A DNA stretch of 50,696 nucleotides from Gemmatimonadaceae bacterium (GTDB lineage: Bacteria; Gemmatimonadota; Gemmatimonadetes; Gemmatimonadales; Gemmatimonadaceae): contig DATFBS010000064.1 in the NCBI GenBank assembly GCA_035253695.1, forward strand, positions 1-50,696. The letters are read 5' to 3'. Position numbers and translations under genes: made by a program. Numbering within the stretch: position 1 is the stretch's first letter; every line of letters starts with the position of its first letter. The notes under the pieces were generated by a model, which saw nothing but the letters and a program-made list of their open reading frames with translations, was not told the origin of the DNA and did not search any database. Positions 4,218 through 49,387 of this stretch are shown here, in pieces.

Positions 4218-4499
4218 ATGCGACGCTACATGATCGAGCGGGACCTGACGGGCGCCGGCCAGCTCACCGCGGATGAGCTCCGTGGCATCTCGACGAAGTC
4301 ATGTGAGGTGCTCCGTGACCTCGGCCCGGAGGTCCAGTGGGTGCAGAGCTACGTCACCGACGACAAGATCTACTGCGTGTACCTCGCGTCGAACGAGCGG
4401 CTGATCCGCGAGCACGCCAAGCGCGGGGGATTCCCCTGTAGCCGGGTGAGTGAAGTACGGGCAGGGATCGATCCGACGACGGCGGAGCTGAGGCAATAG
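4218..4499 (+). CDS. DUF4242-like small protein
   Basis: 93 aa. Pattern MRRYMIERDL...AGQLT..EL.....KSCEVLRDLGP.VQWVQSYVTDDKIYCVYLA...IREHAKRGGFP matches the DUF4242 family I recall. SD-like CAGGAG upstream. 13 nt after the previous gene. Confidence 0.55.
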   Translation: MRRYMIERDLTGAGQLTADELRGISTKSCEVLRDLGPEVQWVQSYVTDDKIYCVYLASNERLIREHAKRGGFPCSRVSEVRAGIDPTTAELRQ

Positions 4500-4500
4500 G

Positions 4501-4617
4501 TCCCAAGGGTCCTCAGGGTCCTCAGGGTCCTCAGGGTGCGTAGTGCTCAGGGGGTTCACACTCTGAGGACCCTGAGGACCCTGAGGACCCTGAGGACCCT
4601 GAGGACCCTTGGGACTA
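4501..4617. repeat. palindromic element made of tandem 9-mers: (GGGTCCTCA)x3, loop, (TGAGGACCC)x5
   Basis: Direct reading of 4501-4617. Arms are reverse complements with unequal repeat numbers. The loop sequence GGGTGCGTAGTGCTCAGGGGGTTCACACTCTGAGG is conserved in the second copy at 17947-18058. It sits between convergent genes. Confidence 0.75.
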
Positions 4618-5760: not shown

Positions 5761-5946
5761 GGGACCACCTCCGCCTGCGAGGGTAGGGTCGGGGATGAGG
5801 GGGCGCAAGGGCCAGGCCGTCAGCGCAGTGTAAAGGCAGGCCAACGCTGAGGTCCGCGAGGTAGTGGAGGTAGTCCAGGCGATCGACGAGAAGTCGCCTG
5901 ATCAGCTTGGTCTACCTGGACTCCCTGGACAACCTGGGCAACCTCT

Positions 5947-6876
5947 CTAGGGCGTAATGTCTATCGCGAGATGAAGCTGTAGGTATCGCTCGATGACTCG
6001 AGCGAGAGAAGAAGCGAATCTCGCTCTGTTCTCTTCCGTATCCCGAACTCCAACTCGGTTCGACTCGATCTGCACCGCGCAGATCTGACCCCCTCCCCGA
6101 CACCCATGCACCGCGGTGTTATAGCCGCCGGCGAAGTACTCGGCGTCGCCGGGGTCGGGCGTCGAGTCGCTGGGAACGGCGGGGAAGCCCTCCGCCTCGA
6201 GCAGCGCGCCAAGGCTCGAAGGGCCGCGCAGCAGCTCGGAGAACGACAGTGGGGAGAGCACCGATATCGTTCGGATGCTGCTCGAGCTCTCGAACGCGGG
6301 GCGGCTGTCCAGAGAGTCGTTCGGCTTGCGAAGATCTCCCGCGTCCAGGAGATAGCCGAGCTCCAACCGCTGGATCGCGTGGCCATGGCCGTGCAGGTCG
6401 AGGTAGAGGCCGCCCGTGAGATCCCTGCTGATCGCGTTCTTGGCTTCGGCGATGAACTGGTGGAATTCCTGCCACGCGAGCTGGGCCTCCGCGTCCCCCT
6501 GTGCGCCCTCGACGATCTCGCGGTTCGCGTCGAGCTTCACGCGATGCAGGTGCACGATGACGACATGCGCATGCTTTCCCGTCAGCCTGACGAGAGCGGA
6601 ATCGGCCGCGCGAGCCAGCTCGCCCGTGTTCAGGTCGGTGACGGTCGTCCCGTACGTGCGATCGGGAATCTCCGCCGGTCGAAGCGATCCGCCGTGGGGC
6701 GCAGTGAGGATGACCGGAAGCTCTCCGGCGATGTACTCGATGTAGTTGTTGCGTCCGAAGTAGGAGGTGCCCGGCGTATAGCGCGCCGTGTCCACCGGGT
6801 CCACGCGCGGCGACGCCGGAGAGGCGCACGCCGACAGCAGGACGAGGAGTCCGAGCGACGAGCGAGCGTTCAGAAC
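5947..6876 (-). CDS. N-formylglutamate amidohydrolase (FGase)-fold zinc hydrolase, secreted or lipoprotein
   Basis: Motifs [19 protein letters not shown] and HGHGH are typical of the FGase/succinylglutamate desuccinylase-like fold. Lipoprotein-like N-terminus [10 protein letters not shown]. The exact start is uncertain: no ATG/GTG/TTG sits immediately before the signal peptide. The ORF-track extension to 7422 overlaps the E1 gene and is spurious. Confidence 0.5.
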
Positions 6877-8981
6877 GCCGCGATCTCCTGCACGACGCGC
6901 TTGAAATCGTCGATCTGCGGGAGGATCGCGTCTTCGAGCGACGGCGCGTAGCCGACGAACGTATCGGTCGACGCAATGCGCATCACCGGCGCGTCGAGCC
7001 AGGCGAAGCATTCCTGCGCGATCGCGGCGGCGATCTCGGCGCCGTATCCCCACGACAGCGAGTCCTCGTAGGCGACGATCACGCGATTCGTCTTCTTCGT
7101 CGATGCGAACACCGCCTCTCGATCCCACGGCGAAAGCGTGCGCAGATCGATCACCTCGACATCTGGACCGCCAGCCTCGGCGATCTGGTTCGCGGCGACG
7201 AGCGCGCGCTGCACCGTTGCACCGTAGGTGACGATGGTGATGTCCTTCCCGTCGCGGACCACCTTCGCCTTGCCGAACGGAATCATGAAGTTCGGCCCGG
7301 GGTACCGCGATTTGTTGTATGTCTGCCGATAGAGATGCTTGTGCTCGAGGAAGATCACCGGATCGTCGCAGCGAATCGCCGTGCGCAGCAATCCGTTGGC
7401 ATCGAGCGCGGTCGCGGGACACACGACGCGAAGCCCGGGCGTGTGCGTGAACAGCGACGCGCCGGTCTGCGAGTGGTAGACGGCACCGCGGATGTAGCCA
7501 CCGTAGGTCGTGCGCACGACGACCGGCGCGGAGAACGCGTTATTCGACCGCCAGCGCATCGTGGCCAGCTCGTCGCGGAGCTGCATGTATGCCGGCCAGA
7601 TATAATCGAAGAACTGAATCTCGACGACCGGCTTCAATCCGCGGATCGCCAGACCAACGGCGCGACCGACAATGTTCGCCTCGGCGAGCGGTGAGTTGTA
7701 GACACGGGTGCCGCCGAACTCCTTTTGCAGTCCCCACGTCACCTTGAAGACGCCACCCTTGCCTTTCACCTTGCCCATGTACTGCTCGCGTGACAGGTCG
7801 GCGACATCCTCACCGAACACCACGATCTTCTCATCGCGCCGCATCTCATCCTTCATGCACGCGTTGAGCAGATCGACCATCGTCGTCGGCTCGCCGGCGA
7901 ACTGTGGATCGTCCTCCGTGTCGAACGCATCGCTAGTGGGATCGACGTCGGGCGAATAAACGGCGAAGTACACCGTGTCAGCGGCGGGCTGCGGCTGGGC
8001 GAGGGCGTCGTCGGTCGCGGCAAGGATCTCGGCGTCCACCTCCTGACGAAGTCGATCGAGCTCATCCTCCGTCGCCATTCCCTCCGCCACCAGCCAGCGC
8101 GGGAAGGTGATGAGCGGATCGCGCTGCGCCTCCGCCTCGCGCTCCTCGGGAGGCTTGTAGAAGACCTCGTCGTCGGACTGTGAATGCGAGTACGGACGAA
8201 TGACGCGAGCGTGCACGAACGCCGGGCCCTTCCCTTTGCGCGTGTGATCGACGGCTTTCTTCATCACCTCGTATGAGGCGACCAGATCGCACCCGTCGAC
8301 TTCCAGGATCAACAGATTCGGGAAGCCGCTCACGAGCTTCGAGATCGAGCCACCCGCTGTATTCACCTCGACCGGGACGGAAATCGCGTAGCCGTTGTCC
8401 TCCACGAGGTAGACGATGGGCAGCGACAGATTGCAGGCGGTGTTGAGGGATTCCCAGAACTCGCCTTCGCTGGTCGTGCCATCGCCGGTGGTGACGAGAA
8501 CGATCTCATCTTTCTGGAAACCTTCGGTGAGGCCAAGCGCCTTCGCGCGAACGATTGCCTCAGCGGACCCGACTGCCTGGAGGAACTGCGTTCCGGTCGG
8601 CGACGAGGTGGAGACGATGTTCAGCTCTTTTTTTCCCCAGTGGCTGGGCATCTGCCGCCCGCCGGAGTTGGGATCGATCGCCGCGCCAACCGCCGAGTAG
8701 AGCATCTCCGCGGGCGTCATGCCGAGCTGCAGGCACAGCGCGCGGTCGCGGTAGTACATGTAGAACCAGTCATGCGCCGACCGCGTAACCATGCCAGCGG
8801 CGGTCAGGATCGCCTCATGTCCCGCGCCGGAGATCTGGAAGAAGATCTTATTCTGCTTCTTGAGCTGGATCTCTTTGTCATCGAGCCGGCGCGAGAGGTA
8901 CATCGTGCGATAGGCGGCGACGAGCTGATCGCGCCCGAGCTCCGATGTCCCTTTCCGCTCCGCTTTCGTTTGAGTCGCCAT
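6870..8981 (-). CDS. 2-oxoacid (pyruvate/branched-chain) dehydrogenase E1 component, fused alpha and beta subunits, TPP-dependent
   Basis: N-terminal E1-alpha TPP-binding region ([17 protein letters not shown]...GAGHEA...[15 protein letters not shown]) and C-terminal E1-beta transketolase-like region ([11 protein letters not shown]...[14 protein letters not shown]...). The start is set at [10 protein letters not shown] (ATG ~8981). The 39 upstream codons in the ORF track are translation of the repeat element. Confidence 0.8.
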
Positions 8982-8997
8982 AGAACTTGAAGATAGT

Positions 8998-9095
8998 CGT
9001 CGAACGAGGAACGAGGAACGAGGAACGAGGAACGAGGAAGCCGTCGCGAGCTCCGCGCCGCGTTTCCTCGTCCCTCGTTCCTCGTTCCTCATTGG
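8998..9095. repeat. palindromic element: (GAACGAG)x5, 22-nt loop, (CCTCGTT)-type units x4
   Basis: Direct reading. It lies in the divergent region between the E1 and HIT gene starts. The unit GAGGAAYGAGG is shared with the elements at 20053-20133 and 38488-38590. Confidence 0.65.
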
Positions 9096-9134
9096 CACCT
9101 TCCGTGCTTCTTCGAGTGGTACCAGGAGGGTCTC

Positions 9135-9617
9135 ATGGGAACGCAGTCAGGACACTGCATCTTCTGCGACATCATCAAGGGCGCGGCCGAGGTCTCGGTG
9201 TGCTACGAGGATACCGAGTCGATCGCGTTCATGGACATCCAGCCGGTGAACGCGGGCCACGTTCTTGTCGTGTCGCGGCAACACTTCGAGTCTTTCCTCG
9301 ACTTGCCGAAGAGTCTGGGGACGCACCTGTTCGAGGTGGCAATGCAGCTGGCGCCGGCCATTCGAAAGGTGTCGGGGGCCGACGGCATGAACCTCATCGT
9401 CTCGAGTGGAGCCTCGGCCGGTCAGGATGTGTATCACTTTCACATCCACCTGATCCCCCGGCGGCAGAACGATGGATTCGACGTCCCGCTCCCATTCGCC
9501 AACTCGGAGATGCCCGACCGTACGGTGCTCGACATGATGGCGGCGCGGATCATCAGCGCGTTACGGGATCCCACACGCGCGCGTCCGACGCCCCGTGAGG
9601 CGGCGGCCGTTCCGTGA
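9135..9617 (+). CDS. HIT (histidine triad) family protein
   Basis: HFHIHLIP histidine-triad motif. Zn-finger-like CIFCDI at the N-terminus. SD AGGAGGG 6 nt upstream. Confidence 0.8.
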
Positions 9618-9898: not shown

Positions 9899-10303
9899 AT
9901 GTCTCGGCACGGCATTCATCGCATCTGCCTTCCCCGCGCCCCGCGTGGCCTTCTCCGGCGGCGCCGTTCCTCCCACCTCCGTCACGTCGATTTCAAGCGA
10001 GCGCTCAAGCGCGCCGTAATGCGCGACTGCGGCCGGCGCTGCGTGTACTGCGGTGCCGGGCTCGAGCATGATCATGCGACCATCGATCACGTGCACCCGC
10101 GCGCGCGGGGAGGCATCACCGCGTACGGGAACCTCGTCGCCGCCTGCGCACCCTGCAATCGACTGAAGGGTGACATGCTGCCGCACGATTTCTTCGTCCG
10201 ATATCCGCTGGCGGGGATGAACTTTCTGTTGTACGCGCGGGTGGTGCATCGCGCCTTGAAGCGCGGCGCGCGACGCGCGGTGAGTCTGGCCCTGGCGGCG
10301 TGA
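9899..10303 (+). CDS. HNH endonuclease domain protein
   Basis: CVYCG...HDHATIDHVHP...GG...NLV.ACAPCNRLKGD matches the HNH C-x2-C/H-N-H/C-x2-C pattern. The start is chosen at the ATG with a GAGGTG SD (9899). The ORF-track start at 9710 is probably an extension and 10019 is an alternative. Confidence 0.55.
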   Translation: MSRHGIHRICLPRAPRGLLRRRRSSHLRHVDFKRALKRAVMRDCGRRCVYCGAGLEHDHATIDHVHPRARGGITAYGNLVAACAPCNRLKGDMLPHDFFVRYPLAGMNFLLYARVVHRALKRGARRAVSLALAA

Positions 10304-10313
10304 AGTAGGAACT

Positions 10314-10434
10314 AGTGGTCAGGGGTCAGGGATCAGGGGGTGTCAGGGAGGAGGTTGAAGGAGAGAACGGCGCGCTGAAGTTCTCTCCTATGACCTATTC
10401 CCTGACACCCCCTGATCCCTGACCCCTGACCACT
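10314..10434. repeat. 37-bp near-perfect inverted repeat of (GGTCAGG/GATCAGGG) units with a nested inner hairpin (GGAGAGAAC...GTTCTCTCC)
   Basis: 10314-10350 is the reverse complement of 10398-10434 with one mismatch. The inner 9-bp stem is at 10361-10389. It lies between convergent HNH and nadE genes. Confidence 0.75.
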
Positions 10435-10446
10435 AACTCCTGGCTC

Positions 10447-12288
10447 TCAATAATCCACCGGCCTTAAGTACGACTCGCCAATCGCATTCGGGCTCACCAT
10501 CGCGACCGTGGGCAACCGGCGCTTCCAGTGCGTACCCTCGAGGCGCTGCCTGACGAGCTCCACTTCCTTGCCCTCGAAGCCGCGCGCCACCAGTTCGGCG
10601 GGCGCGTAGCCGCTGAGCAGCCATTGGAGAATCCGATCGGCTTTCTCATAGGTGATGCCGAGATCCCCCTCGTCCGTCTGACCGTGGATGAGATCAGCCG
10701 TGGCGGGCTTTTCGACGATGGCCTTCGGAACGCCGAGATGGCGCGCCAGCTGCCAGACTTGCGTCTTGAACAGGTCGCCAAGCGGATTCACCGGAGGCGA
10801 GTCGTCGGCGTGCCAGGTGAAATAGCCGAACAGGCGCTCCGTCTTGTTCCCCGTGCCTAACGGAATGGCCTGGTACTTGGACGACAGATCGAAGAGCGCG
10901 ATCATGCGCACGCGCGCCATCACGTTGCCGCGACGGCCCGGGGACGCATCGGACTCGGCGGTGAGATACCCGTCCACCGCCGGGGAGATGTCGAGCGTTC
11001 TTCCCGTGATACCGAGCGCGTCGATGACGAGCTGCGCGTGCTCCAGGCTCTCCCTGCTCGAGGTGCGATAGGGCAGTCGCACACCGATGACGTTTTCGGG
11101 GCCGAGTGCGCGCGCCGCGAGAAAGGCGGTGACGGCGGAGTCGACTCCGCCGGACAGGCCAATGATCCCCTTCGAGAATCCGCGGCGCTTCACTTCCTCC
11201 TCGATGAAGTGCACGAGCCATTTTTCCGTCAGGCCGCCGTCGATGTCGAGCGGCGGTGGCCCGCCCGCCCCTTCGAGCGGCGCGACCTGAACGACCCGCA
11301 GCGGACCGCGCGCGGGCGCCTCGACATCGGGATGCACCAACGCGTGATCCCCGTTCTCACTGGGCGGATCGAAGGCGAGGGGTGGCGCCTCACGAGACTC
11401 CTTCGCGAGCAGGCTTTCCATGAGATGCGGCATCGCCGTGCGGAGATCGGCGAGCAGTGGCATGTCGGCGCGCGCACGGGTGAGGTCGGCGAGGTCGAGG
11501 GGCAGCGTCACCAGCGCTTCATCCCAGAGCGGTGCGCGAGTGCGGACGTCACCCTTCGGGCCCGAAATGAGCGACGCCCCGGAGAAGATCTTTCCCCCCT
11601 CACTCCCGGCGAGGTTCGCGAAGGACACGAAGACGCCATGCTCCTCGGCGATGTCCCGGATGAGACGCTCCCATCGCGCGACACTCGCGGGGCCCGGAAT
11701 CGCGTCTTCACGAGGCCACGCCCCCCGCGCCGGTGCCGCGCTCGAGACGAAAATGACCTGCGCACCATCGAGCGCGGCGAGCGTTCCCGAGAGCGAATGC
11801 CAGGCGTCTTCGCAGACGAGAATCGCCGCGCGTCCCCACGATGTATCGAAGGCGTGAAACTCGTGGCCGCGCTCGACGAACCGCTCCTCATCGAACAGCC
11901 CGTACGTCGGAAGGAACACTTTGCGGTGTACGTGCAGCACATCCGGTCCCTCGGGGCCGAGTGTGACGTACATCGCGCTGTTGAAGAGCGTGTTCTGGAA
12001 GATCTCGTAGAAGCCGACGACGACGTCGAGGCTCGCCAGCCCGTTGGTCGCACCGCGCCACGCGTCCTGCAGGTCGCGCGCGAGCGTTCCCGCGGTGACG
12101 GCGAGATCCCGCACGCCGCCTTCGACGAAGTACCCGGTGAGCGCGGTCTCGGGGAGATGCAACACCTGCGGCCGCGGGCGCATGCCGTTCACCTGCGCGA
12201 ACACTTCGCGGAGCCGCGTCAGATTCGCGGCGTAGTCGCCCTTCGCGGGCTTGATCTGAGCAAGGGCGAGGTGAACGAGGGGGGGCAT
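10447..12288 (-). CDS. nadE: glutamine-dependent NAD+ synthetase (N-terminal CN-hydrolase domain and C-terminal NAD synthetase domain)
   Basis: Nitrilase-superfamily region (ILVCEDAWH). ATP-pyrophosphatase region with SGGVDSAV P-loop and GTGNKTE..FGYFT motifs. 613 aa. Confidence 0.85.
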   Translation of the reverse strand: MPPLVHLALAQIKPAKGDYAANLTRLREVFAQVNGMRPRPQVLHLPETALTGYFVEGGVRDLAVTAGTLARDLQDAWRGATNGLASLDVVVGFYEIFQNTLFNSAMYVTLGPEGPDVLHVHRKVFLPTYGLFDEERFVERGHEFHAFDTSWGRAAILVCEDAWHSLSGTLAALDGAQVIFVSSAAPARGAWPREDAIPGPASVARWERLIRDIAEEHGVFVSFANLAGSEGGKIFSGASLISGPKGDVRTRAPLWDEALVTLPLDLADLTRARADMPLLADLRTAMPHLMESLLAKESREAPPLAFDPPSENGDHALVHPDVEAPARGPLRVVQVAPLEGAGGPPPLDIDGGLTEKWLVHFIEEEVKRRGFSKGIIGLSGGVDSAVTAFLAARALGPENVIGVRLPYRTSSRESLEHAQLVIDALGITGRTLDISPAVDGYLTAESDASPGRRGNVMARVRMIALFDLSSKYQAIPLGTGNKTERLFGYFTWHADDSPPVNPLGDLFKTQVWQLARHLGVPKAIVEKPATADLIHGQTDEGDLGITYEKADRILQWLLSGYAPAELVARGFEGKEVELVRQRLEGTHWKRRLPTVAMVSPNAIGESYLRPVDY

Positions 12289-16024: not shown

Positions 16025-16041
16025 GATCGTTTAGCTAAACT

Positions 16042-16154
16042 TCCGAAGACGTCGGACATCAGACGTCAGAGTTCAGATGTCAGAAACCGAAACCGCACTA
16101 GGCAACGAGGTGTCTGACGTCTGACCACTGACGTCTGATGTCTGAGGTCTTCGG
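16042..16154. repeat. imperfect palindrome built from GACGTCAGA-type units (~42-bp arms)
   Basis: 16042-16083 is approximately the reverse complement of 16111-16154. It sits directly after the PBP gene and overlaps the ORF-track start of the next gene. Confidence 0.6.
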
Positions 16155-16181
16155 ATGTGTCTCTTCTCGCAAACCATCGCA

Positions 16182-16947: not shown

Positions 16948-18084
16948 CTACCTCGGGTCGTCCCCGGGCTTCCTCCCGACGAAATGGAACCCGACGAGTC
17001 GATGATGCTCGTATCCCGCGAGGATCGCTCGCTTCTTGTCGCGCGGGTCGAACCGTTGAACGCCAAGTACCTGCGACACGATCGGGATGGACGCGAGGGC
17101 CTCCTGAAAGACGGTCGTGACTTCCAGGTCGATGAGTCCCTTCACCTTCGGGCTTCGTGACAGGCGGAGCACTGATCGCCGAATCTGAAACGTGTTGGGG
17201 TCGAGAAAGATCGATCCGTTCACGTCGGGATTCTCGATCTTGGCCCACGCGTAGAGGTCGATGCGAAGGAGGTCCGTTCCATCGACATGATCGAGTCCGC
17301 CATCGACGAAGCAGTGGTTGTCGAGAAAGAGCGGATCGGCGAAGTCGAGCAGCGTTGGAATATTGAAGAACACCTCTCCACGTTGACGGCGAGTGGGACG
17401 CGTCAGGATCCGCCCGGGCCGATACCGCCAGGGCGGCTTACTTGCGACTACCACCGTGTCGATATCGTCGATGCGGGTTTCGCCGTCCCGCAGCTCGCTG
17501 CTGACGATCAACTCCTGCGAGTAGACAAACGGATATCGCTCCGACAGGAGACGGTATTGCTCTCCGTTCATCTGCAGCTGCGTGAGGAGCGTCAGGAGCG
17601 AAGAGTCCGTCACCGCGCGGAGTCCGGGTGTCGTACACGAGGGATTCGCGCGAACCTGCACGGGAGCGAGCTTCAGAGCCACGCGCGTGAGCTCGATCCG
17701 TAGGGAATCCTGTGCTCCCGCCCGCACGGTGAGCATCAGATCCTTTGGCGCATAGCCGAGCCGGCGGATGTGAAGCGCGAACGATCCCGGCGGGAGCGCG
17801 CGCAGCACGAACGTGCCGCTGTCGTTGGCGAAGCGGTGGATCTCCAGCGACGGCACCGCGATCACGCTATGCGCGAGCGGCTCTCCACTCTCGCGCGCGA
17901 CGACGATGCCGACGACGCTGCCTTGCGCCGAGAGAGATGCTGGAAGAAGGGTGCTCAGGGTCCTCAGGGTCCTCAGGGTCCTCAGGGTGCGAGGTGCTCG
18001 GGGTTTTCGCACCCTGAGGACCCTGAGGACCCTGAGGACCCTGAGGACCCTGAGCACCCTGAGCACCTCTGCTCTACTTGGCAT
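16948..18084 (-). CDS. CarboxypepD_reg-like domain protein; N-terminal region encoded by a repeat element (possibly disrupted signal peptide)
   Basis: Mature-like region ASLSAQGSVVGIVVARESGEP...RRLGYAP is paralogous to the N-terminal domains of genes 4615-5760 and 42760-45843. The ORF from ATG 18084 reads through the 9-mer palindrome as MPSRAE(VLR)5...(TLR)4. That ATG overlaps the stop of the upstream cupin gene by 11 nt. True start and secretion status are uncertain. Confidence 0.5.
   Translation of the reverse strand: MPSRAEVLRVLRVLRVLRVLRVLRVRKPRAPRTLRTLRTLRTLSTLLPASLSAQGSVVGIVVARESGEPLAHSVIAVPSLEIHRFANDSGTFVLRALPPGSFALHIRRLGYAPKDLMLTVRAGAQDSLRIELTRVALKLAPVQVRANPSCTTPGLRAVTDSSLLTLLTQLQMNGEQYRLLSERYPFVYSQELIVSSELRDGETRIDDIDTVVVASKPPWRYRPGRILTRPTRRQRGEVFFNIPTLLDFADPLFLDNHCFVDGGLDHVDGTDLLRIDLYAWAKIENPDVNGSIFLDPNTFQIRRSVLRLSRSPKVKGLIDLEVTTVFQEALASIPIVSQVLGVQRFDPRDKKRAILAGYEHHRLVGFHFVGRKPGDDPR
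17947..18058. repeat. palindromic element of tandem GGGTCCTCA / TGAGGACCC units (~45-bp stem), second copy of the family at 4501-4617
   Basis: Near-perfect palindrome centred at ~18003. The loop GGGTGCGAGGTGCTCGGGGTTTTCGCACCC is homologous to the loop of the 4501 element. Confidence 0.75.
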
Positions 18085-19312: not shown

Positions 19313-20092
19313 TCAGGGCACCGAGTCGAGCACGCGCCGCTTACCTAACGGGTCGATGTCGAACGCGACGGCCTGGCGCCGTCGCGCTTCGGCGCCCCGT
19401 ACCGTCGCCAGGGCCGTGTAGTAATCCAGATACGCGAACGACGAGACCCCGCCACGCACGAACTCGTAGCTCGAAACGAGCTCGCGCCACTTGGCCATGT
19501 GGTCGCTGACGTCGATGTACAGGTACGGCTGAAACCGCTCGGTGTCTTCCCAGTTCTCGGCGTACCAGAGACGGGTCCCGCGATGCGCGGGCTCTCCCTT
19601 CGAGCCCACCTCGATCGCGGCGAGCAGCACCGCGTCGACGACGATGGCGTGCGCGGCCGCATGGTCGCGGTGAATGCTCTCCCGCCAATGTGTGATGACG
19701 AGGGTCGGCTTGGTCTGACGAATGACATCGGCCACGTAGCGCCGAGCCTCGTCGGTGTCTGGAACCTCCCCATCGCGATAGGGGGCGAAGATGACGTCCC
19801 CGCCTAACACACGCGCTGCCGCTTCCGCTTCTTTCCGCTTTTGTGCCCCGTACGCCGTCGGCGGAAGCTTGGGATTCCCGCGCTCTCCCAGGCTCAGGTG
19901 CAGAATGACGACGCGATCGCCGAGCTGACGCTGCTTGAGAAGCACGGCACCGGCGGTGAGCTCCATGTCCCCCGCGTGCGCGCCGACGGCCAGGATCGTC
20001 CGGGGTGCTTGCTGACCCTGGGTCGGAACCGCGACCAGGGCGAGAACGACGAAAGGAACGAGGAATGAGGAAGCTGAGATCGTCTTCCTCAT
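19313..20092 (-). CDS. PIG-L/LmbE family deacetylase, secreted
   Basis: LmbE-like N-terminal motif (ILAVGAHAGDMELTAGA) and a conserved HxxH region. The signal peptide MRKTISASSFLVPFVVLALV is encoded by the arms of the repeat element at 20053-20133. Confidence 0.7.
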   Translation of the reverse strand: MRKTISASSFLVPFVVLALVAVPTQGQQAPRTILAVGAHAGDMELTAGAVLLKQRQLGDRVVILHLSLGERGNPKLPPTAYGAQKRKEAEAAARVLGGDVIFAPYRDGEVPDTDEARRYVADVIRQTKPTLVITHWRESIHRDHAAAHAIVVDAVLLAAIEVGSKGEPAHRGTRLWYAENWEDTERFQPYLYIDVSDHMAKWRELVSSYEFVRGGVSSFAYLDYYTALATVRGAEARRRQAVAFDIDPLGKRRVLDSVP

Positions 20093-20133
20093 TCCTCGTG
20101 CCTCGTTTTCCTCATTCCTCGTTCCTCGTTCGC
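20053..20133. repeat. palindrome AGGAACGAGGAATGAGGAAG / CTTCCTCATTCCTCGTGCCT plus a tandem extension of the right arm (GAGGAAYGAGG family)
   Basis: 20053-20072 is the reverse complement of 20083-20102 with one mismatch. A further direct repeat runs to ~20133. The deacetylase start codon (~20090) lies inside the right arm. Confidence 0.65.
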
Positions 20134-20142
20134 AGAACTACC

Positions 20143-21840
20143 TCAGAGTAGCGGTGCGCAACCTGACGGATTCGTGCACACCGGCACCAGCTCGATCCCC
20201 CGATAGTAGTGCTTCAGGATCTCGATGAACGACGCCTTCTTTTCCGCCATGCCGACCGCACCCGTCTGCGACATCCCGACGCCGTGACCGAAGCCGCCGC
20301 CCCACGCCACGAAGCCGGTGAGCTCCTTTGTCTTCCTGTCGTGCACCGGCTCGATGTACACCAGCGTGCTCGGCAGGTTGACCTTCGCGCCGCTGGCGTC
20401 GATGAAGCGAAGCGACGAGCGGATGCGATCCTTCGTATCGGTGAAGGTGCCGGCCTCCGTCACGTACTCGATCGTCTTCACGCGGCCCGATCCGCTGCGC
20501 TCGAGCACGTTGATCGCCAGCACGGCGCCGACGTCCTGACCTGCCCATAGAGAGAGGACGTTGCGGATCTCGGCGTTGGTCCACTCGAACGTCCAACGGT
20601 GGAAGCGGCTCCAGTCCGCCTCGAAGTCGCCTGCCTTCGTCGCGCGGAGCTGCCGCGCGTTCGCGTTGTTCTGGACGCCGTCGTCGTGATTCTCGAGCGA
20701 GTTGCCGCGCTGATGATCGGGGATCCCCCGCAGGTAGGCGACCGGTGCGGAGTTGAAGACATCCTCATTGTTGGCGGTGAATCCACCACTCGTCGAGAAG
20801 TACAGGGCCTCGATCGGACGGATACGATCGACCGTCGCGATCAACCCGTCAGTCTCGTTCACCGCCTGCGTGGAGAGCGGATGCTCATCCTGGAAGCCGC
20901 CGTACACCTGATCGGCGGTCGTCGGGAGCAGATTGTAGCCGTCGGACGCCCGCTTGTTGAAGTTCGCGATCGCGTAGGTGCGCGCGGCGACCGACTGCGC
21001 CTTCAGCGCCTCGAGCTCGGGGAAGGCGATAGGACCCAGCTCGCGAGGCACGACGCCCCACAGATACTGCTCGAGTGGAAGCTCGTTGACTCCGGCGATC
21101 GCACCTCCACCGGTCGCGATGTGAACCTCGGCGACGCCCCGGTACAGCCGCGTCCCGATGCGGACAATGCCGTCGGGCGACGCGAGCACCACGTTCCCCG
21201 GTACATTGGCGAGCGAGGTCGTGCCGCGCCGCACGTCGATCTGCGCGACGCCGTCGGAGCGCGTCACGGTGAAGGGGCCACCAGGCGCAGTCGGGGGGAA
21301 GGTGAGTCCCGCGGCAGTGAAGCTGGCGACGAAGGCGGTGCGTTGCGCCGCGGTCGCGTTCGTCGGCAGCGAGCCAATGCGAAGGCGCCAGCAGTTCGCT
21401 CCCGCCACGAACTCGGTATACCACTCGAACCCGGCGGTAGTTACTCGCGAGGTCCAGTTGTCGCGGGTCGCAACGCTCCCCGTGCAGGCCACCTGCCACC
21501 AGAGCCGCGTGCGAGGCGTTCCACCGGGAATCAACACCGCCGTGAGATTCTCGGCGTTCCCGGTCGCGATCGTTGCACCCGTGGTCTTGTTGATCACGGT
21601 GAACGACGTCGGACTGCCGATCGTCAGGCTAGTCGTGGGCGTCGATCCGTTGATCGCGGCAATGACGCCAATCCGGATCATCCCGGTAAATCCGGCAGGC
21701 GGATCGATCGGCTCACCGATGGTATCATCGCGGCCGTTCTCGAAGCGGGGGGAGTGCGGGCTCGTGACGAGATCGGTGCAGGCGGCAACCATAACGAGCG
21801 TGCCCGAGGCGAGGCTCGTCACCAGACGACCGAGACGCAT
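20143..21840 (-). CDS. SpoIID/LytB domain protein (peptidoglycan amidase-enhancer-like), lipoprotein
   Basis: C-terminal SpoIID/LytB signature region (AQSVAARTYA...YFSTSGGFTANNEDVF...). N-terminal lipobox VAACTD. Confidence 0.7.
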   Translation of the reverse strand: MRLGRLVTSLASGTLVMVAACTDLVTSPHSPRFENGRDDTIGEPIDPPAGFTGMIRIGVIAAINGSTPTTSLTIGSPTSFTVINKTTGATIATGNAENLTAVLIPGGTPRTRLWWQVACTGSVATRDNWTSRVTTAGFEWYTEFVAGANCWRLRIGSLPTNATAAQRTAFVASFTAAGLTFPPTAPGGPFTVTRSDGVAQIDVRRGTTSLANVPGNVVLASPDGIVRIGTRLYRGVAEVHIATGGGAIAGVNELPLEQYLWGVVPRELGPIAFPELEALKAQSVAARTYAIANFNKRASDGYNLLPTTADQVYGGFQDEHPLSTQAVNETDGLIATVDRIRPIEALYFSTSGGFTANNEDVFNSAPVAYLRGIPDHQRGNSLENHDDGVQNNANARQLRATKAGDFEADWSRFHRWTFEWTNAEIRNVLSLWAGQDVGAVLAINVLERSGSGRVKTIEYVTEAGTFTDTKDRIRSSLRFIDASGAKVNLPSTLVYIEPVHDRKTKELTGFVAWGGGFGHGVGMSQTGAVGMAEKKASFIEILKHYYRGIELVPVCTNPSGCAPLL

Positions 21841-31224: not shown

Positions 31225-31329
31225 GTCGCCGAAGGTTTGGGGACGCTCGGCTCCGCGACAGAGGCAATGTGACGAACTGGCCGCGCCATGGAGTGGGTTG
31301 TCACTAGCCAGATGCCATCAAGACCTACA

Positions 31330-31546
31330 GGCTGGCATCAAGAACAAGAAGCGGTTTGACACGGATGACACGGATTGAACTGAAGGTGCCTAATCGTTCA
31401 TGCGCGGCGTAACTCTCCTCTCGCAACCAGAAAAAAAAGACATTTCTTGTTGTTGTAGAGGAGGGATCCCTGCGCCCCGCGTCGATCCGGCCGCTTCGGT
31501 TCAATCCGTGTCATCCGTGTTCAACTGCTCTCCGTTCTTGATGCCC
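31330..31546. repeat. ~217-bp highly structured element, copy A (terminal ~48-bp inverted repeats with GACACGGAT tandem units, inner hairpins); candidate MITE or structured ncRNA
   Basis: Near-identical to 35545-35738 apart from a central A-rich insertion. The termini GGCTGGCATCAAGAA...TTCTTGATGCCC are reverse complements. It lies between same-strand genes. Confidence 0.6.
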
Positions 31547-31578
31547 GCCTGTCGCCTCACAAGCCCCGGCAGAGAAGA

Positions 31579-35544: not shown

Positions 35545-35738
35545 GGCTGGCATCAAGAAGGAGAGCAGTTTGACACGGATGACACGGATTGAACGGAAGG
35601 TGCCTGATCGCTCCTGGCCAGCGTAACTCTCCTCGCGCAATCACAAAGAGAGGAGGGATTTCAGCGCACCGAGTCGATCCCGACGCTACCGTTCAATCCG
35701 TGTCATCCGTGTCAAACTGCTCTCCTTCTTAGATGCCC
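35545..35738. repeat. ~194-bp structured element, copy B (paralog of 31330-31546)
   Basis: The outer ~48-bp arms GGCATCAAGAAGGAGAGCAGTTTGACACGGATGACACGGATTGAACGG and their near-perfect reverse complement were read directly. The inner CTCTCCTC...GAGGAGGG hairpin is present as in copy A. Confidence 0.65.
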
Positions 35739-37817: not shown

Positions 37818-38412
37818 CGGTCAGCTCCTTCCTGGTGGGGTCGGCGACGACGTGGACCGTGTTGGGGCCGACGACATCGACGACCATGATCGACGCGCCC
37901 GTCGGAAGCGGCGCGTCCGAGGTGATTGCCTGGTACTCGACGATCCGGTTCTGGAGCTTCAGCATCACTTTCCCCGATCCCTTTCGCTCGCCCGGGATCG
38001 TGAGGTACACGGTGCCGGTGGCCCCAACGGCGCCGTGAATCGACACCGTGCCGTCGTCCTCGAAGCCCAGCATCCAGCGCATCGCGACGGCGGTGCCGAA
38101 CATCGCCGCGACCCCGGCGATGAGCGCGAGCGGAATCGCCGCCCACAGACCGAGCGGTGTCGCCAATCCCGTCAGCCCGCCCAGCCCGAAGAACGCGACG
38201 CCCGCCGACAGGGCTCGAACGCTCAGCAGATCGAGCCCCTCGTGCGCCGTATGCATGCCCGCGAGGCCATGCCCCTCGCCCGCGTCCACATCGCCCCCGG
38301 CATCGATGACGCCGAGGAGGCCGAGGAGTAGCTGGACGACGAGGACGCCGCCTCCGAGGGCGGCGCATACGACGAAAAAGGTGGTCATGCGAAAGTGTGG
38401 CGGGGGAGTCAT
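37804..38412 (-). CDS. NfeD-like membrane protein (YqiJ-type flotillin partner)
   Basis: Multi-TM N-terminus and a C-terminal OB-fold-like region (GTVYLTIPGERKGSGKVMLKLQNRIVEYQAITSD). It overlaps the flotillin start by 14 nt, which is the classic nfeD-flotillin operon arrangement. Confidence 0.7.
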   Translation of the reverse strand: MTPPPHFRMTTFFVVCAALGGGVLVVQLLLGLLGVIDAGGDVDAGEGHGLAGMHTAHEGLDLLSVRALSAGVAFFGLGGLTGLATPLGLWAAIPLALIAGVAAMFGTAVAMRWMLGFEDDGTVSIHGAVGATGTVYLTIPGERKGSGKVMLKLQNRIVEYQAITSDAPLPTGASIMVVDVVGPNTVHVVADPTRKELTDAVR

Positions 38413-38487: not shown

Positions 38488-38590
38488 GTCCTGCGAGGGA
38501 GGAATGAGGACCGAGGAGTGAGGAATTCGATCGGGCGAGACCGAGGTCATCAGACTTCCTCACTCCTCACTTCTCATTCCTCCATACCTC
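38488..38590. repeat. palindrome of GAGGAATGAGG/GAGGAGTGAGG units (~28-bp arms), third member of the GAGGAAYGAGG family
   Basis: 38488-38515 is approximately the reverse complement of 38563-38590. It sits between the 3' end of gene 38599-39483 and the nfeD start. Confidence 0.6.
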
Positions 38591-38598
38591 TCCCGGCG

Positions 38599-39483
38599 CT
38601 ACCGAAGATGTTGGACCGAGACTGGATCTCTTCGCTTCACGCCGAACCGGGAGGCGAAGTCGCCCTGATTGATCGAGAGCGAGAGCACACCTCGCGAGTG
38701 CATCACGGCGAGGGCCTGGCCGGTAGGCACATCGCTGAACGTGCTGCGCCAGGGGAGACGTAAGGTGCGGGAGCCGACCCGCACCTCGAGCGAGTCTCCG
38801 ACCTTCGCGCCGAGCGAATCGAGCAGCGCTGCCCGAATGTCGGTTACCACGTTGCCGTACGGGTCTTCGACATACCGCACTGCTCCTTCGATGCGTCCTC
38901 CGCTCAGACGCGGGGGTCGGACATCGAGCATCACCGGGGTGATCGGTGGGCCGAGCGAGTCGAGCGGGGTCCCGGCCGCGAGGTGGGCGGCCACGGGCGC
39001 GAAGATGTCGCGGCCGTGAAAGGTGAACGACGGCTGCTCGGCGCGGAAATACCGTGTGTTGCGCAGCTCGACGGCGCGCTCGACCCCCTCGGTCTGCATA
39101 ACGAGAGTGAAGACGCCATTGTCCGGACCGACGAGGCGATGCCCCCGCTTCGTGAGGACGGCGATGGCCTTCCGCTCGCTCCCGACGCCCGGGTCGACGA
39201 CGGCGACGGCGACGGTGCCTTCGGGATAGAACGGCAGTGCCTGCTCGAGCACCTCGCCCGCAATCTCGATGTCGTACGGCGGAACGTCGTGCGTGAGATC
39301 GACGATCCGCATGTTGGGCGCGATGCCCAGCATCACCCCCTTGCAGGCCGCGACAGCACCGTCCTTGACGCCGAAGTCGGTCAGAAAGAGCACGGTGGCC
39401 GGCTCGCGCGGCGGAGTCTCTCGTGCACACGCTACCGCGGCACCAAGCGCCAGAACCACCAGCGTCCGCACCGCTCGTCTCAA
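38599..39483 (-). CDS. SAM hydroxide adenosyltransferase family protein (DUF62; fluorinase/chlorinase-like fold), secreted
   Basis: Conserved DFG (LFLTDFGVKD), VVDPGVG and C-terminal β-barrel region typical of DUF62. N-terminal signal peptide. Confidence 0.65.
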   Translation of the reverse strand: MRRAVRTLVVLALGAAVACARETPPREPATVLFLTDFGVKDGAVAACKGVMLGIAPNMRIVDLTHDVPPYDIEIAGEVLEQALPFYPEGTVAVAVVDPGVGSERKAIAVLTKRGHRLVGPDNGVFTLVMQTEGVERAVELRNTRYFRAEQPSFTFHGRDIFAPVAAHLAAGTPLDSLGPPITPVMLDVRPPRLSGGRIEGAVRYVEDPYGNVVTDIRAALLDSLGAKVGDSLEVRVGSRTLRLPWRSTFSDVPTGQALAVMHSRGVLSLSINQGDFASRFGVKRRDPVSVQHLR

Positions 39484-47253: not shown

Positions 47254-49387
47254 CTGGCTGTTCGCGGCCGCCTGTGTGGCCGCGGTCGGACACGGCGTCG
47301 CAGCTCAGGCACCTAACGAGGTGCCTGAGCTCGCGCGCCGCGTGGAGGTGCGGCGGACGGCGTTCGGAGTTCCGCACATCAAGGCCGACGATCTGCGTGC
47401 CGCGGCGTATGCGCTCGCCTACGTGCAGCTCGAGGATCACGGCGCGCGGGTCGCGATCGGTCTGCTGCGTGCGCGCGGCGAGATGGGTCGCTGGTTCGGG
47501 CGCGACAGCATGGAAAGCGACTTCTCGGCCAAGCGGGACTATGCGCTGGCGGTGGAGCACTACGCGCAGATCGATCAGGCGACACGCGACGTGTACGAGG
47601 GGTTCGCGGCCGGGGTCAATCGATACATCGCGCTCCATCCCGAGGAGTTTCCGCCGGAGTTCGCGCCGAACTTCACCGGATACGATGTCGCGGCGCGCGA
47701 CGTGAGCTCGGCGTCAGCCGCGCAGGCTCGGCGATTTCTCGCCCGATTCGAGGCCCCACGGCAGCGCGGGCCCGGCGACGCGCCTCCTCCGAGCGAGGGC
47801 ATCGACGACATCGAGGAAGGATCCAACGCCTGGGCCTTCGCGCCGAGCCGCACGAGGTCGGGGCGCGCGATTCTCCTTCGCAATCCGCACCTCTCGTGGA
47901 CCGCCGGATACTACGAGGCGCACGTCACCGTCCCTGGGGTGCTCGATTTCTACGGAGATTTCCGCATCGGCGGGCCCTTCGGCGTCATCGGCGGCTTCAA
48001 TCGCCACCTCGGGTGGGCGACGACGAACAATGCGCCCGATCTCGACGAGATCTACGCGCTCGACGTCGATCCATCACTCCCCGATCACTTCCTGTTCAAT
48101 GGGACGTCGCTTCCCGTGCAGCGCGAGCTCGTGACGGTCGCCTTCCGGAACGGGCCCGGCGTGTCCACCGAGACTCGTGAGATGTGGCGGACGCCGCTCG
48201 GACCGGTCATCCATCGCGACAGCGGCAAGGTGTACGTGCTTCGCGCAGCTGCCGAGGGAGAGTTCCGCGCCGGCGAGCAGTTCCTGCGGATGATGCGGGC
48301 GCAATCGCTCGCCGAATGGAAGGACGCGATGCGTATCCGTGCCCGGGTGAACTCCAACTTCACCTATGCCGATCGTGCGGGAAACATCTTCTACGTATGG
48401 AACGCCTCGATTCCCGCGCTGCCGCATCCAAGCGGAGGAGATACGACGGCGGTGCCAGCGCGCGGTATCGACGACGTGTGGACTCGTTATGTGCCCTTCG
48501 ATTCGCTGCCGCAGCTCCTCAACCCGCGCGGCGGCTATGTGCGCAACGAGAACGATCCGCCCTACCATACGAACTTGCGGCAGGTGCTCGATCGCTCGCG
48601 CTACCCCGCCAACTTCCCCGAGCCGCTGCTGCGACTCCGCAGCCAGCTGAGTCTCGCGTTGATCGACCCACCGAAGAAGCTGAGCCTCGAGGACGTCGTC
48701 GCGCTGAAGCACTCCTATCGCATGCTGCTCGCCGATCGCGTCAAGGATGACCTCGTGGCGGCGGTGAGAGCCTCGTCGCCTTCCCCGCCGGTGAGCGAGG
48801 CGATCGAGCTCCTCAGGCGCTGGGACAACACCGCCGGACACACGAGCCGTGGGGGCGTGCTCTTCGAAACGTGGTGGCGGAAATACGTCGAGGGCGCCAA
48901 TCCCGACACGATGTTCGCACAGCCGTGGTCCGTCGAAGCCGCGGCGACGACTCCCCGAGGTCTGAAGGACCGCTCGAGAGCCGCCGAGGCATTTGCCTGG
49001 GCTGTCGAGGAGACGACGCGGCGGCATGGCCGCTACGATGTCGCCTGGGGTGAAGTACATCGCGTGCGCATCGGCACGGTCGACGTGCCGGTTGGTGGAT
49101 GCAGCGGCGCCCTTGGCTGCTTCCGCGTGCTCAACTTCAGAACCGACGCCGACGGCAAACGCTCGGTGGTCGGGGGCGATGGCTGGGTCATCGCCGTCGA
49201 GTTCACCGATACGCCGCGCGCCTACTCGGTGCTCGCGTACGGAGAAAGCGCGCGCGAGGACTCACCGCATCACGCCGATCAGGCCGAGATGTTCGCGCGC
49301 GGCGAAATGAAGCGCGTGGCCCTCACCGAGCGCGACATCGAGTCACAAACGATTCGTCGCTACCGCCCGGGCGCCATCGCCCCGTGA
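47246..49387 (+). CDS. penicillin acylase-family Ntn-hydrolase (AHL acylase/PvdQ-like), secreted
   Basis: Signal peptide. β-subunit N-terminal nucleophile motif GSNAWA. Overall length and motifs fit the family. It overlaps the SusD stop by 8 nt. Confidence 0.8.
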   Translation: MRSWLFAAACVAAVGHGVAAQAPNEVPELARRVEVRRTAFGVPHIKADDLRAAAYALAYVQLEDHGARVAIGLLRARGEMGRWFGRDSMESDFSAKRDYALAVEHYAQIDQATRDVYEGFAAGVNRYIALHPEEFPPEFAPNFTGYDVAARDVSSASAAQARRFLARFEAPRQRGPGDAPPPSEGIDDIEEGSNAWAFAPSRTRSGRAILLRNPHLSWTAGYYEAHVTVPGVLDFYGDFRIGGPFGVIGGFNRHLGWATTNNAPDLDEIYALDVDPSLPDHFLFNGTSLPVQRELVTVAFRNGPGVSTETREMWRTPLGPVIHRDSGKVYVLRAAAEGEFRAGEQFLRMMRAQSLAEWKDAMRIRARVNSNFTYADRAGNIFYVWNASIPALPHPSGGDTTAVPARGIDDVWTRYVPFDSLPQLLNPRGGYVRNENDPPYHTNLRQVLDRSRYPANFPEPLLRLRSQLSLALIDPPKKLSLEDVVALKHSYRMLLADRVKDDLVAAVRASSPSPPVSEAIELLRRWDNTAGHTSRGGVLFETWWRKYVEGANPDTMFAQPWSVEAAATTPRGLKDRSRAAEAFAWAVEETTRRHGRYDVAWGEVHRVRIGTVDVPVGGCSGALGCFRVLNFRTDADGKRSVVGGDGWVIAVEFTDTPRAYSVLAYGESAREDSPHHADQAEMFARGEMKRVALTERDIESQTIRRYRPGAIAP

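Follow-up and report, generated by a model that had tools for sequence, protein, structure and literature searches.

The window examined here is a stretch of 50,696 nucleotides from the metagenome-assembled genome of a Gemmatimonadaceae bacterium (contig DATFBS010000064.1), and our subject is a set of hairpin-forming repeats that it carries between, and occasionally within, its genes. Three of these repeats are built from tandem copies of the heptamer GAGGAAY, set opposite their own reverse complement. One lies in the divergent spacer between the gene for an E1 dehydrogenase (E1_dh, not to be confused with the repeat element E1 listed below) and the gene for a HIT hydrolase; another contains the start codon of a PIG-L gene; and the third separates the end of a SAM_HAT gene from the start of the next gene. 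A first-pass annotation of the window had recognized these palindromes, their complementary arms and their gene neighbours, and motif counts, tandem-repeat detection, an inverted-repeat finder and folding all agree with that description. It had further regarded them as a special three-copy family, positioned over translation start regions, whose purine-rich arm might sequester or mimic ribosome-binding sites (RBSs). The three are set out here, with copies of the 7-nt unit as counted in the left and right arms by Tandem Repeats Finder (TRF):

8998-9095, E4: GAGGAAY member 1, in the divergent E1_dh/HIT spacer; (GAACGAG)x5.4 as left arm (9002-9039) and (TTCCTCG)x3.9 as right arm (9064-9093), around a loop of 24 nt
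20053-20133, E8: GAGGAAY member 2; AAGGAACGAGGAATGAGGAAG, a 10-nt loop and a longer pyrimidine array; asymmetric arms of 2.7 and 6.4 units
38488-38590, E11: GAGGAAY/GAGGAGT member 3, more degenerate (a GAGGAAT/GAGGAGT pair); arms 38498-38528 and 38553-38583, of 4.3 and 3.7 units

Matches to GAGGAAYGAGG with at most one mismatch number 19 in the window, against 2.60 +/- 1.32 expected from dinucleotide shuffles; the highest count in a shuffle is 6, none of 100 shuffles gets to 19, and 18 of the 19 matches fall inside E4, E8 or E11. TRF delimits the paired 7-nt arrays at 9002-9039 and 9064-9090, at 20054-20072 and 20085-20131, and at 38495-38524 and 38557-38582. The arms are 87-96% complementary and the loops, as called by the inverted-repeat finder, are 24-38 nt long, while the folds of the two strands range from -41.8 to -68.0 kcal/mol, with z-scores of -4.5 to -7.9 against shuffles. 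The loops and flanks of the three copies are unrelated to one another. None of the elements of the window matches an Rfam 15 model at gathering thresholds; at E-value thresholds the only hits are sub-threshold eukaryotic miRNA-precursor models, which stand for generic long hairpins and are spurious.

The supposed three-copy family proves to be one unit type within a larger class. About 11 elements of a shared architecture occur in the 50.7 kb, roughly one per 5 kb, of which nine were detected automatically and two by eye. The detector accepted TRF arrays of at least 2.5 copies and a period of 5-12 that had a reverse-complement partner no more than 160 nt away, and it returned no element from 40 Markov-simulated windows. 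In each case a short unit, mostly of 7 nt and sometimes of 8-11, is repeated in tandem and followed by a non-repetitive core or loop and then by the reverse complement of the array. The units of the sister elements are unrelated (AGGGTCCTC, GGTCAGG, AGACGTC, TGACACGGA and CACAGAGAC) and do not resemble a Shine-Dalgarno (SD) sequence. Because the sisters use such unrelated units, the SD-like look of GAGGAAY is not a property of the class but a coincidence of one unit type; even the site orthologous to E4 carries, in one relative, a GGATTGC unit instead.

Position relative to genes and spread among relatives

These elements constitute a lineage-wide class in the Gemmatimonadaceae, intergenic in location and ending within a few nucleotides of a stop codon. 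Position was surveyed for 69 elements in high-GC loci, drawn from the window, from 80 metagenome loci surrounding orthologues of HIT and from genome loci (loci other than the window are given as L numbers). For 54 stop-codon flanks, the median distance to the element is 5 nt, and 48 of the 54 lie within -30 to +35 nt. When sorted by type of gap, the elements divide into 30 tandem, 12 convergent and 9 divergent, compared with a baseline of 140, 42 and 42; this agreement implies no preference for gene starts or for any type of gap, and no avoidance of divergent gaps. The GAGGAAC hairpins of relatives behave in the same way, standing right after stop codons in L031 and L097 and filling a convergent stop-to-stop gap in L077, which contradicts the expectation of a family bound to gene starts and is the outcome by which the first-pass annotation had itself proposed to refute the idea.

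The unit families of the window recur at other places in the metagenome-assembled genomes (MAGs) of other Gemmatimonadaceae: GAGGAAC in L031, L046, L077, L091 and L097, GGTCAGG in a hairpin of L102, and CCCTGAGCA and GAGGAGT in hairpins of L106. The CCCTGAGCA hairpin (L106, 7396-7510) is related to the AGGGTCCTC hairpins of the window. In L046, from a Gemmatimonadales MAG, a perfect GAGGAAC hairpin at 1034-1155 may lie in a 766-aa open frame, just before the Walker A region of an ABC transporter; it would be either an in-frame insertion or the junction of two genes. Beyond these relatives, a scan for GAGGAAYGAGGAAYGAGG in one genome per species returned more than 116 loci in many phyla, mostly one-armed heptamer arrays, many of them beside other heptamer arrays, and an exact inverted arm was nearby in only 7 of 116. 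By our own estimate, an 18-mer with Y at two of its positions should turn up some 70 times by chance in 2 x 596 Gb, so a distribution of this width does not speak for homology.

Strong structure following a stop codon is found in the window at these elements only. Hairpin-plus-T-tract terminators, sought in positions 1-40000, are not enriched (6 against 8.9 expected; 9 against 8.5) and none stands at a gene end. Neither the canonical terminator scan nor a sigma70 promoter scan, itself without enrichment, flagged any element, and direct reading of the element flanks revealed no T run. The lineage seems not to use classical intrinsic terminators. Comparison of the sense and antisense strands gave no bias, either in stability (the more stable strand being sense in 15 cases and antisense in 15) or in G-U pairs (68 against 78; Wilcoxon p = 0.93).

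Gene starts and turnover at individual sites

The E1_dh|HIT spacer is 153 nt long, and E4 within it folds at -66.1 and -68.0 kcal/mol on its two strands (z -7.5 and -7.9). The HIT gene has an SD sequence, AGGAGG, at 9124-9129 and an ATG at 9135, leaving about 30 nt between the end of E4 and the SD and about 40 nt between it and the ATG. The E1 dehydrogenase gene (minus strand, 8979-8996 region) has no SD. Two putative promoter elements lie between the hairpin and the genes:

9093-9108, plus strand: sigma54-type -24/-12 box TGGCAC-N5-GTGCT, adjoining the right arm of E4, 27 nt before the HIT ATG
8990-8995, minus strand: TATCTT, resembling a -10 box, 8 nt before the E1 ATG (8981)

With no SD and a -10-like box only 8 nt before the ATG, the E1 mRNA is probably leaderless. 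Since both boxes intervene between the hairpin and its neighbours, E4 is probably upstream of both inferred start sites and in neither the HIT nor the E1 mRNA. The boxes themselves are well kept: TGGCA(C/T)-N5-(C/G)TGC(A/G) is found upstream of HIT in 56 of 76 orthologous loci, against a background of 0.027 per 130 nt, sits 17-76 nt upstream of the HIT-family gene across orthologous soil-metagenome loci (L120-L199), and is matched on the other side by a -10-like box (AAGATA or TAAGGTA on the plus strand) retained in orthologous spacers. Control of a small HIT hydrolase by sigma54 throughout a clade, as these boxes would suggest, is unexpected.

The sequence between the boxes has a different history. 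Hairpins upstream of HIT were identified with the TRF-based detector and by direct alignment, as a strict ungapped inverted-repeat detector overlooked most of those with bulges. In L120, whose HIT protein is 91% identical to that of the window, GAACGAG units are kept around a new loop. In L121 (HIT 88% identical by tblastn, 89% by MAFFT), the arms have become GGATTGC and GCAATCC, with a GAATGAGGA relic remaining beside the loop; L143 has GAGCGAG-type arms, and L122 and L123 have no hairpin. Where the HIT proteins are 94-100% identical, neither flanking box varies between loci, and the filler between the two carries a hairpin of different units or no clear hairpin. Various-unit hairpins adjoin the TGGCAY box in the window, L120, L156 and L195, and lie no more than 100 nt upstream of the HIT start in L121, L143, L165, L176 and L183. 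A comparable exchange has occurred in the HNH|NadE gap, filled by a 7-mer GGTCAGG hairpin in the window and in L121 and by a 9-mer GGGTGTCGA hairpin in L120. Copies of E4 on contigs encoding an identical HIT protein differ by one unit (7 nt) and two C-to-T changes. Several elements carry an ordinary GC hairpin at the centre, which in L171 and L102 is followed by a T tract. Judging from these alignments, the arms stay complementary through replacement of the unit while the loops drift, and the number of units, both in E4 and in E8 (below), is hypervariable between near-identical strains. The elements are not essential: loci whose HIT proteins are 94-100% identical have hairpins of different units or no clear hairpin, and of the window's five convergent gaps three are without one.

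E8 begins 10 nt past the SpoIID stop (20143-20145), and its minus strand carries SD-like units, the PIG-L ATG (20092-20090) and codons 1-13. This ATG, situated in the right arm, is the sole possible start before the Pfam domain, which extends from residue 34. In the SpoIID-PIG-L transcript, the AUG is predicted to fall within a 17-bp perfect helix of a structure of -43 to -52 kcal/mol, too stable to have the marginal stability of riboregulators. Leaving the partner arm out of the fold opens the AUG, raising its predicted probability of being unpaired from 0.001 to 0.63, whereas the same comparison at E4 leaves the accessibility of the HIT SD where it was (0.297 with the hairpin, 0.292 without). 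The E8 stem is therefore predicted to bury the PIG-L start codon, in which it is the exception among the three GAGGAAY hairpins. The first-pass placement over translation start regions holds for E8 alone, and so does sequestration, on this prediction; E4 lies clear of the SD, and E11 is 76 nt from the nearest start. For these repeats the idea of an RBS switch has had a mostly negative outcome.

The PIG-L junction has changed along similar lines. E8 alleles on contigs that encode identical proteins have one GAGGAAT unit more or less in the 5' distal arm. Five relatives with PIG-L proteins 81-85% identical retain a GAGGAAC-type hairpin at the SpoIID|PIG-L junction, with arms kept and loops that cannot be aligned. 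In three loci (L207, L209 and L211), the called PIG-L open reading frame (ORF) starts upstream of the hairpin, overlapping the SpoIID stop, so that both arms are translated, reading ...RNEERG...FLVPRS.... PIG-L homologues of 80% identity or less have ordinary signal peptides without a repeat-encoded segment. As far as these comparisons go, a repeat element has been recruited into the N-terminal coding sequence of PIG-L.

Some smaller observations attach to this site. The PIG-L signal peptide is partly hairpin-encoded (20040-20092 of the window, minus strand, and L207-L211), the purine arm of the close relatives giving RNEERG(T)RK and the pyrimidine arm (S)FLVPRS. In the allele of the window, a GAGGAAU unit at 20093-20120 (minus strand) provides an upstream AUG, from which a mini-ORF of 8 codons runs to a UGA that overlaps the PIG-L AUG (AUGA); the unit bearing this AUG is missing in three of four sister contigs, so the mini-ORF is not conserved. 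In the comparison of strands, G-U pairs at the PIG-L site number 17 against 14.

The stop of SAM_HAT (38599-38601) is 8-15 nt from E11 on one side, and on the other, at a distance of 76 nt, the gene of a membrane protein starts at 38412; the fold of E11 is self-contained and remote from that start. The membrane protein has no Pfam hit and is NfeD-like by its Band_7 neighbour only. For SAM_HAT, the gene on record has another start than ours, giving 290 aa against 294.

The remaining elements of the window are the following:

1027-1164, E1: unit of about 10-11 nt, AGCACAGAGAC; 49-nt arms, 88% complementary; overlaps the stop (1158) of a BTAD/TPR regulator
4499-4615, E2: 9-nt unit AGGGTCCTC; 38-nt arms, 100% complementary
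5849-5945, E3: 9-nt unit ACCTGGACA; weaker, arms 74% complementary; reaches to within 1-2 nt of the stop codon belonging to the gene at 5947
10307-10446, E5: 7-nt unit GGTCAGG; 62-nt arms, 89% complementary
16039-16158, E6: 7-nt unit AGACGTC; 15-22 nt after the stop, at 16024, of PBP1 (Transgly/Transpeptidase)
17948-18067, E7: 9-nt unit AGGGTCCTC; 41-nt arms, 100% complementary; 6 nt after the stop (18074) of a cupin gene
31327-31552, E9: dispersed palindrome some 200 nt long, each arm with two TGACACGGA units; paralogue of E10
35555-35730, E10: paralogue of E9; 13-27 nt after a glyoxalase-family stop (35743)

Two of these span convergent gaps from stop to stop: E2 exactly, from that of an SCO4226-like gene (4497-4499) to that of a TonB/Plug-like gene (4615-4617), and E5 from that of an HNH ORF (10301-10303) to that of the NAD synthase gene (10447-10449). 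The HNH ORF, a small endonuclease (PF01844 / PF14279) at 10019-10303, ends 3 nt before E5, an arrangement also seen in L001 and L002. Since E2 and E7 have the loop as well as the AGGGTCCTC unit in common, they are copies of one another. E9 and E10 are 80% identical over about 200 nt and form, apart from the simple tandem-repeat hairpins, a dispersed family that could be a MITE (miniature inverted-repeat transposable element) or a structured RNA; they have GGCATCAAGAA...TTCTTGATGCC ends and a conserved inner stem GCGTAACTCTCCTC...AGAGGAGGGAT. A Pfam scan of about 45 proteins of the window detected no transposase, Y1_Tnp/RAYT (REP-associated tyrosine transposase) or integrase, and inspection of the elements by eye gave no consistent target-site duplication or GTAG/CGTC tag; E4 is preceded by CGTC, a tag that E8 and E11 do not share. 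Elsewhere in the window, a penicillin amidase gene contains in its 5' part a perfect hairpin of 13 bp, AGCUCAGGCACCU-AACG-AGGUGCCUGAGCU, at 47295-47335 (fold z -2.8 for a 161-nt region).

Origin, persistence and competing explanations

The interpretation that we favour, with a probability of roughly one half, is that these elements are self-maintaining palindromic microsatellites, fast-evolving and with incidental effects at the RNA level, rather than a dedicated RBS switch. Their symmetry, the complementarity of the arms through swaps of the unit, the hypervariable copy number and the patchy presence together point to a mutational process acting on DNA, not to a sequence-specific function. 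In such a process, arrays would grow and shrink by replication slippage, repetitive arms pairing out of register would allow the shorter arm to be filled in, and complementarity would be upheld by intrastrand, hairpin-templated copying or repair. Because several elements have a GC hairpin at the centre, in two cases with its T tract, many may begin as ordinary small gene-end hairpins that then grow outward. They would persist wherever no promoter or RBS is destroyed, that is, behind stop codons, in convergent gaps, on the upstream side of promoters and, rarely, in permissive N-terminal coding sequence, and it is this tolerance that we propose as the reason for their hugging stop codons. Transcribed copies would form near-perfect RNA stems of 20-60 bp, which may block 3' exonucleases, pause or terminate polymerase and serve as substrates of RNase III, all as side effects and not as a designed function. 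At E8, the purine arm would simply happen to supply PIG-L with an SD-like unit and an ATG.

Several considerations weigh against this interpretation. For this lineage, the absence of a selected function is argued indirectly, and the persistence of a hairpin at PIG-L through about 15% protein divergence, and at E1|HIT through 9-12%, could equally mean that the structure is selected. The loops that E2 shares with E7, and E9 with E10, in addition to their units, imply that some families spread as whole copies, for which slippage alone is insufficient. The templated-repair step is our proposal. The positional survey, finally, relied on genes predicted from G+C content at third codon positions (GC3), with starts set roughly by a longest-ORF heuristic, and mixed its taxa. 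A related possibility, to which we attach rather little probability, keeps the copying step and adds selection: hairpin-templated copying would co-homogenize the arms, a new unit sweeping both, and the structure would be retained as a terminator substitute or RNase III site. Sites of the PIG-L type would then be a structural and a frameshift switch at once, in which the arms encode the charged and hydrophobic parts of a signal peptide and slippage combines with a buried start codon. If this were true, co-homogenized palindromes would be a general, self-renewing class of genome punctuation and not junk.

A first rival is a function at RNA 3' ends. In a genome without canonical intrinsic terminators, the elements would be selected as terminators lacking a U tract, as insulators or as stabilizers of mRNA akin to repetitive extragenic palindromes (REPs), tandem construction being the local way to a long stem. 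We consider this unlikely, though it explains a good deal: the near edge a median of 5 nt from stop codons, the exact filling of convergent gaps by E2 and E5, the lack of enriched hairpin-plus-T-tract sites and of any at gene ends, the restriction of strong post-stop structure to these elements, and the staying of a hairpin at its site while its sequence changes, as happens with terminators. For Xanthomonas, such repeats are reported to coincide with the beginning or end of transcripts more frequently than controls do (PMC4692102). The elements here, however, are without a T tract and without sense-strand bias in stability or G-U pairs, 18% of them are in divergent gaps, which is the baseline, E4 precedes the two putative promoters on either side of it, hairpins are absent from three of the window's five convergent gaps, and presence varies among relatives whose HIT proteins are 94-100% identical. 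Movement of non-autonomous elements, either RAYT-moved and REP/REPIN-like or of the MITE kind, inserting by stop codons or into existing hairpins, would account for the shared unit and loop of E2 and E7, the 80% identity of E9 and E10 over about 200 nt, the recurrence of unit families at different loci of several Gemmatimonadaceae MAGs and the occupation of one orthologous gap by different elements. It is nonetheless improbable as a general explanation, given that the three GAGGAAY copies have unrelated loops and flanks, that neither a consistent GTAG/CGTC tag or target-site duplication nor a transposase, RAYT or integrase among the scanned proteins of the window came to light, and that elements of 80-140 nt with internal periodicity are unlike REPs of 20-40 nt; the GAATGAGGA relic that L121 retains within its GGATTGC hairpin favours a change in situ.

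What was proposed initially, that GAGGAAY hairpins regulate translation by sequestering or mimicking the RBS of adjacent genes, draws its strength from E8, where the AUG and an SD-like unit are held in the perfect helix and freed upon removal of the partner arm, where four extra unpaired GAGGAA units 5' of the stem could be a ribosome standby site, and where a hairpin is kept in relatives 81-85% identical. Little else accords with it, and we regard it as quite improbable: the accessibility of the HIT SD is unaffected by E4, which is probably outside both mRNAs; E11 is distant from its start; the other units of the class are not SD-like, with GGATTGC at the site orthologous to E4; the GAGGAAC hairpins of L031, L077 and L097 are at stop codons or in a convergent gap; the called PIG-L start is upstream of the entire hairpin in L207, L209 and L211; and a perfect stem of -43 kcal/mol is no tunable switch. 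A contingency (phase-variation) switch, by which gain or loss of a 7-nt unit would shift a frame or the spacing of a promoter and so toggle the neighbouring gene, is very improbable. One-unit polymorphisms, which two GAGGAAY members out of three show when strains encoding identical proteins are compared, would suit it, as would a unit length that is not a multiple of three and the location of both arms inside the called PIG-L ORF of L207, L209 and L211, in which a 7-nt change would shift the frame. Yet most elements are after stops or in convergent gaps, with no obvious target for a change in length; the E8 polymorphism is upstream of the ATG, leaving the frame intact, and the observed alleles break no reading frame. 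The polymorphic unit of E4 belongs to the periodic left arm, which would cover the -35 of the putative E1 promoter, and is upstream of the sigma54-like box; a periodic array that loses one unit should, we infer, leave the sequence at the -35 position unchanged. The least probable of all is a role of the DNA itself, in arrays that bind protein, for instance as upstream activating sites for the sigma54-type promoter by E4, or in cruciforms that absorb supercoils. Divergent transcription favours cruciform extrusion, palindromes are strand-symmetric, and hairpins of various units adjoin the TGGCAY box or come within 100 nt of the HIT start on its upstream side in several loci. Against this, the unit differs at every site, which leaves no single conserved protein site, close relatives are without the hairpin, and most elements are nowhere near such promoters.

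Comparison with known repeat systems

An excess of heptamer repeats between the genes of bacteria has been on record since 2007 and is unexplained. Our search of the literature yielded no description of such elements in Gemmatimonadota. The closest known description is that of the inverted pairs of GGGAATC heptamers in Xanthomonas, with which the structural and positional features are all shared, apart from the potential to form G-quadruplexes: the GAGGAAY unit is without any G3 run, and such runs are present only in some sister families (GGTCAGGGG). The Xanthomonas heptamer arrays number about 185 per genome, 70-75 of them as paired convergent arrays (Rehm et al. 2015, PLoS One 10:e0144275, PMC4692102). 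They are 89-93% intergenic, lie on average 28 nt from the end of the upstream ORF and 160 nt from the next ORF, often overlap the stop codon and are few in divergent gaps, and their function is unknown; between Xcc and Xac they vary in length and sequence, although the type, single array or inverted pair, is preserved (PMC4692102). Both systems thus have tandem 7-nt units, two opposed arrays able to form a stem-loop or cruciform, proximity to stop codons and variability, E4 in its divergent gap being the exception here. They differ in their units: those of Xanthomonas belong essentially to a single G-rich family, which was examined for its ability to form G-quadruplexes (PMC4692102), whereas here a single genome from a different phylum combines many unrelated units, with periods of 7, 8, 9 and 10-11 nt. 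Neither exchange of the unit at orthologous sites nor an element overlapping the start of a coding region, both seen here, was reported there. A Pseudoxanthomonas locus (L116) has three such hairpins, one with GGAACGAG units.

Intrinsic terminators resemble these elements as stable GC-rich stem-loops right after stop codons, convergent gaps included, but here there is no U tract, the stems are repetitive and of 20-60 bp, and divergent promoter spacers and the 5' region of a coding sequence contain them as well. Simple sequence repeat (SSR) contingency loci, as in Haemophilus and Neisseria, likewise have units that are not a multiple of three and vary between close strains, and one member here covers the 5' end of a gene; most of our copies, in contrast, are without a gene target, they are palindromic pairs and not single arrays, and the host is a soil bacterium, not a host-adapted pathogen. 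From MITEs, the GAGGAAY copies are set apart by the lack of common internal sequence or duplication, while E2/E7 and E9/E10 do have common internal sequence, with no consistent duplication. REPs, with their mosaic (BIME) and REPIN forms in Enterobacteria and Pseudomonas, are also abundant extragenic palindromes after gene ends and between convergent genes. They are transcribed within mRNAs and are credited with mRNA stabilization and termination. REPs are, however, imperfect palindromes of 20-40 nt with one or a few conserved sequences, a GTAG/CGTC tag and a link to RAYTs (PMC3733652, PMC3333891), whereas the present elements measure 80-140 nt, are internally periodic and of many unit types, and have neither a shared tag nor a RAYT in the window. 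The cyanobacterial short tandemly repeated repetitive (STRR) heptamers and the TAACTGA direct repeats are similar in being intergenic, tandem, variable in copy number and present in distant phyla (MacGregor 2015, PMC4679880). These are mostly one-armed direct arrays, which in Beggiatoaceae are found just upstream of start codons, with a proposed role in translation (PMC4679880); ours are two-armed palindromes hugging stop codons.

This window of Gemmatimonadaceae DNA has the two-armed form of heptamer repeat at very high density, and the metagenome comparisons reveal its mode of evolution, in which arms are maintained, loops drift, the unit is replaced in place and copy number flickers. What the comparisons show of arms being kept and units exchanged is the most interesting by-product of the work, and it makes questions of palindrome maintenance and slippage testable by comparative genomics. 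It also carries a warning for annotation, as such hairpins can be mistaken for regulatory RNAs and, as at PIG-L, may supply start codons and N-terminal residues. Viewed beside the systems above, the elements are a further instance, in another phylum, of a known but unexplained kind of bacterial repeat.

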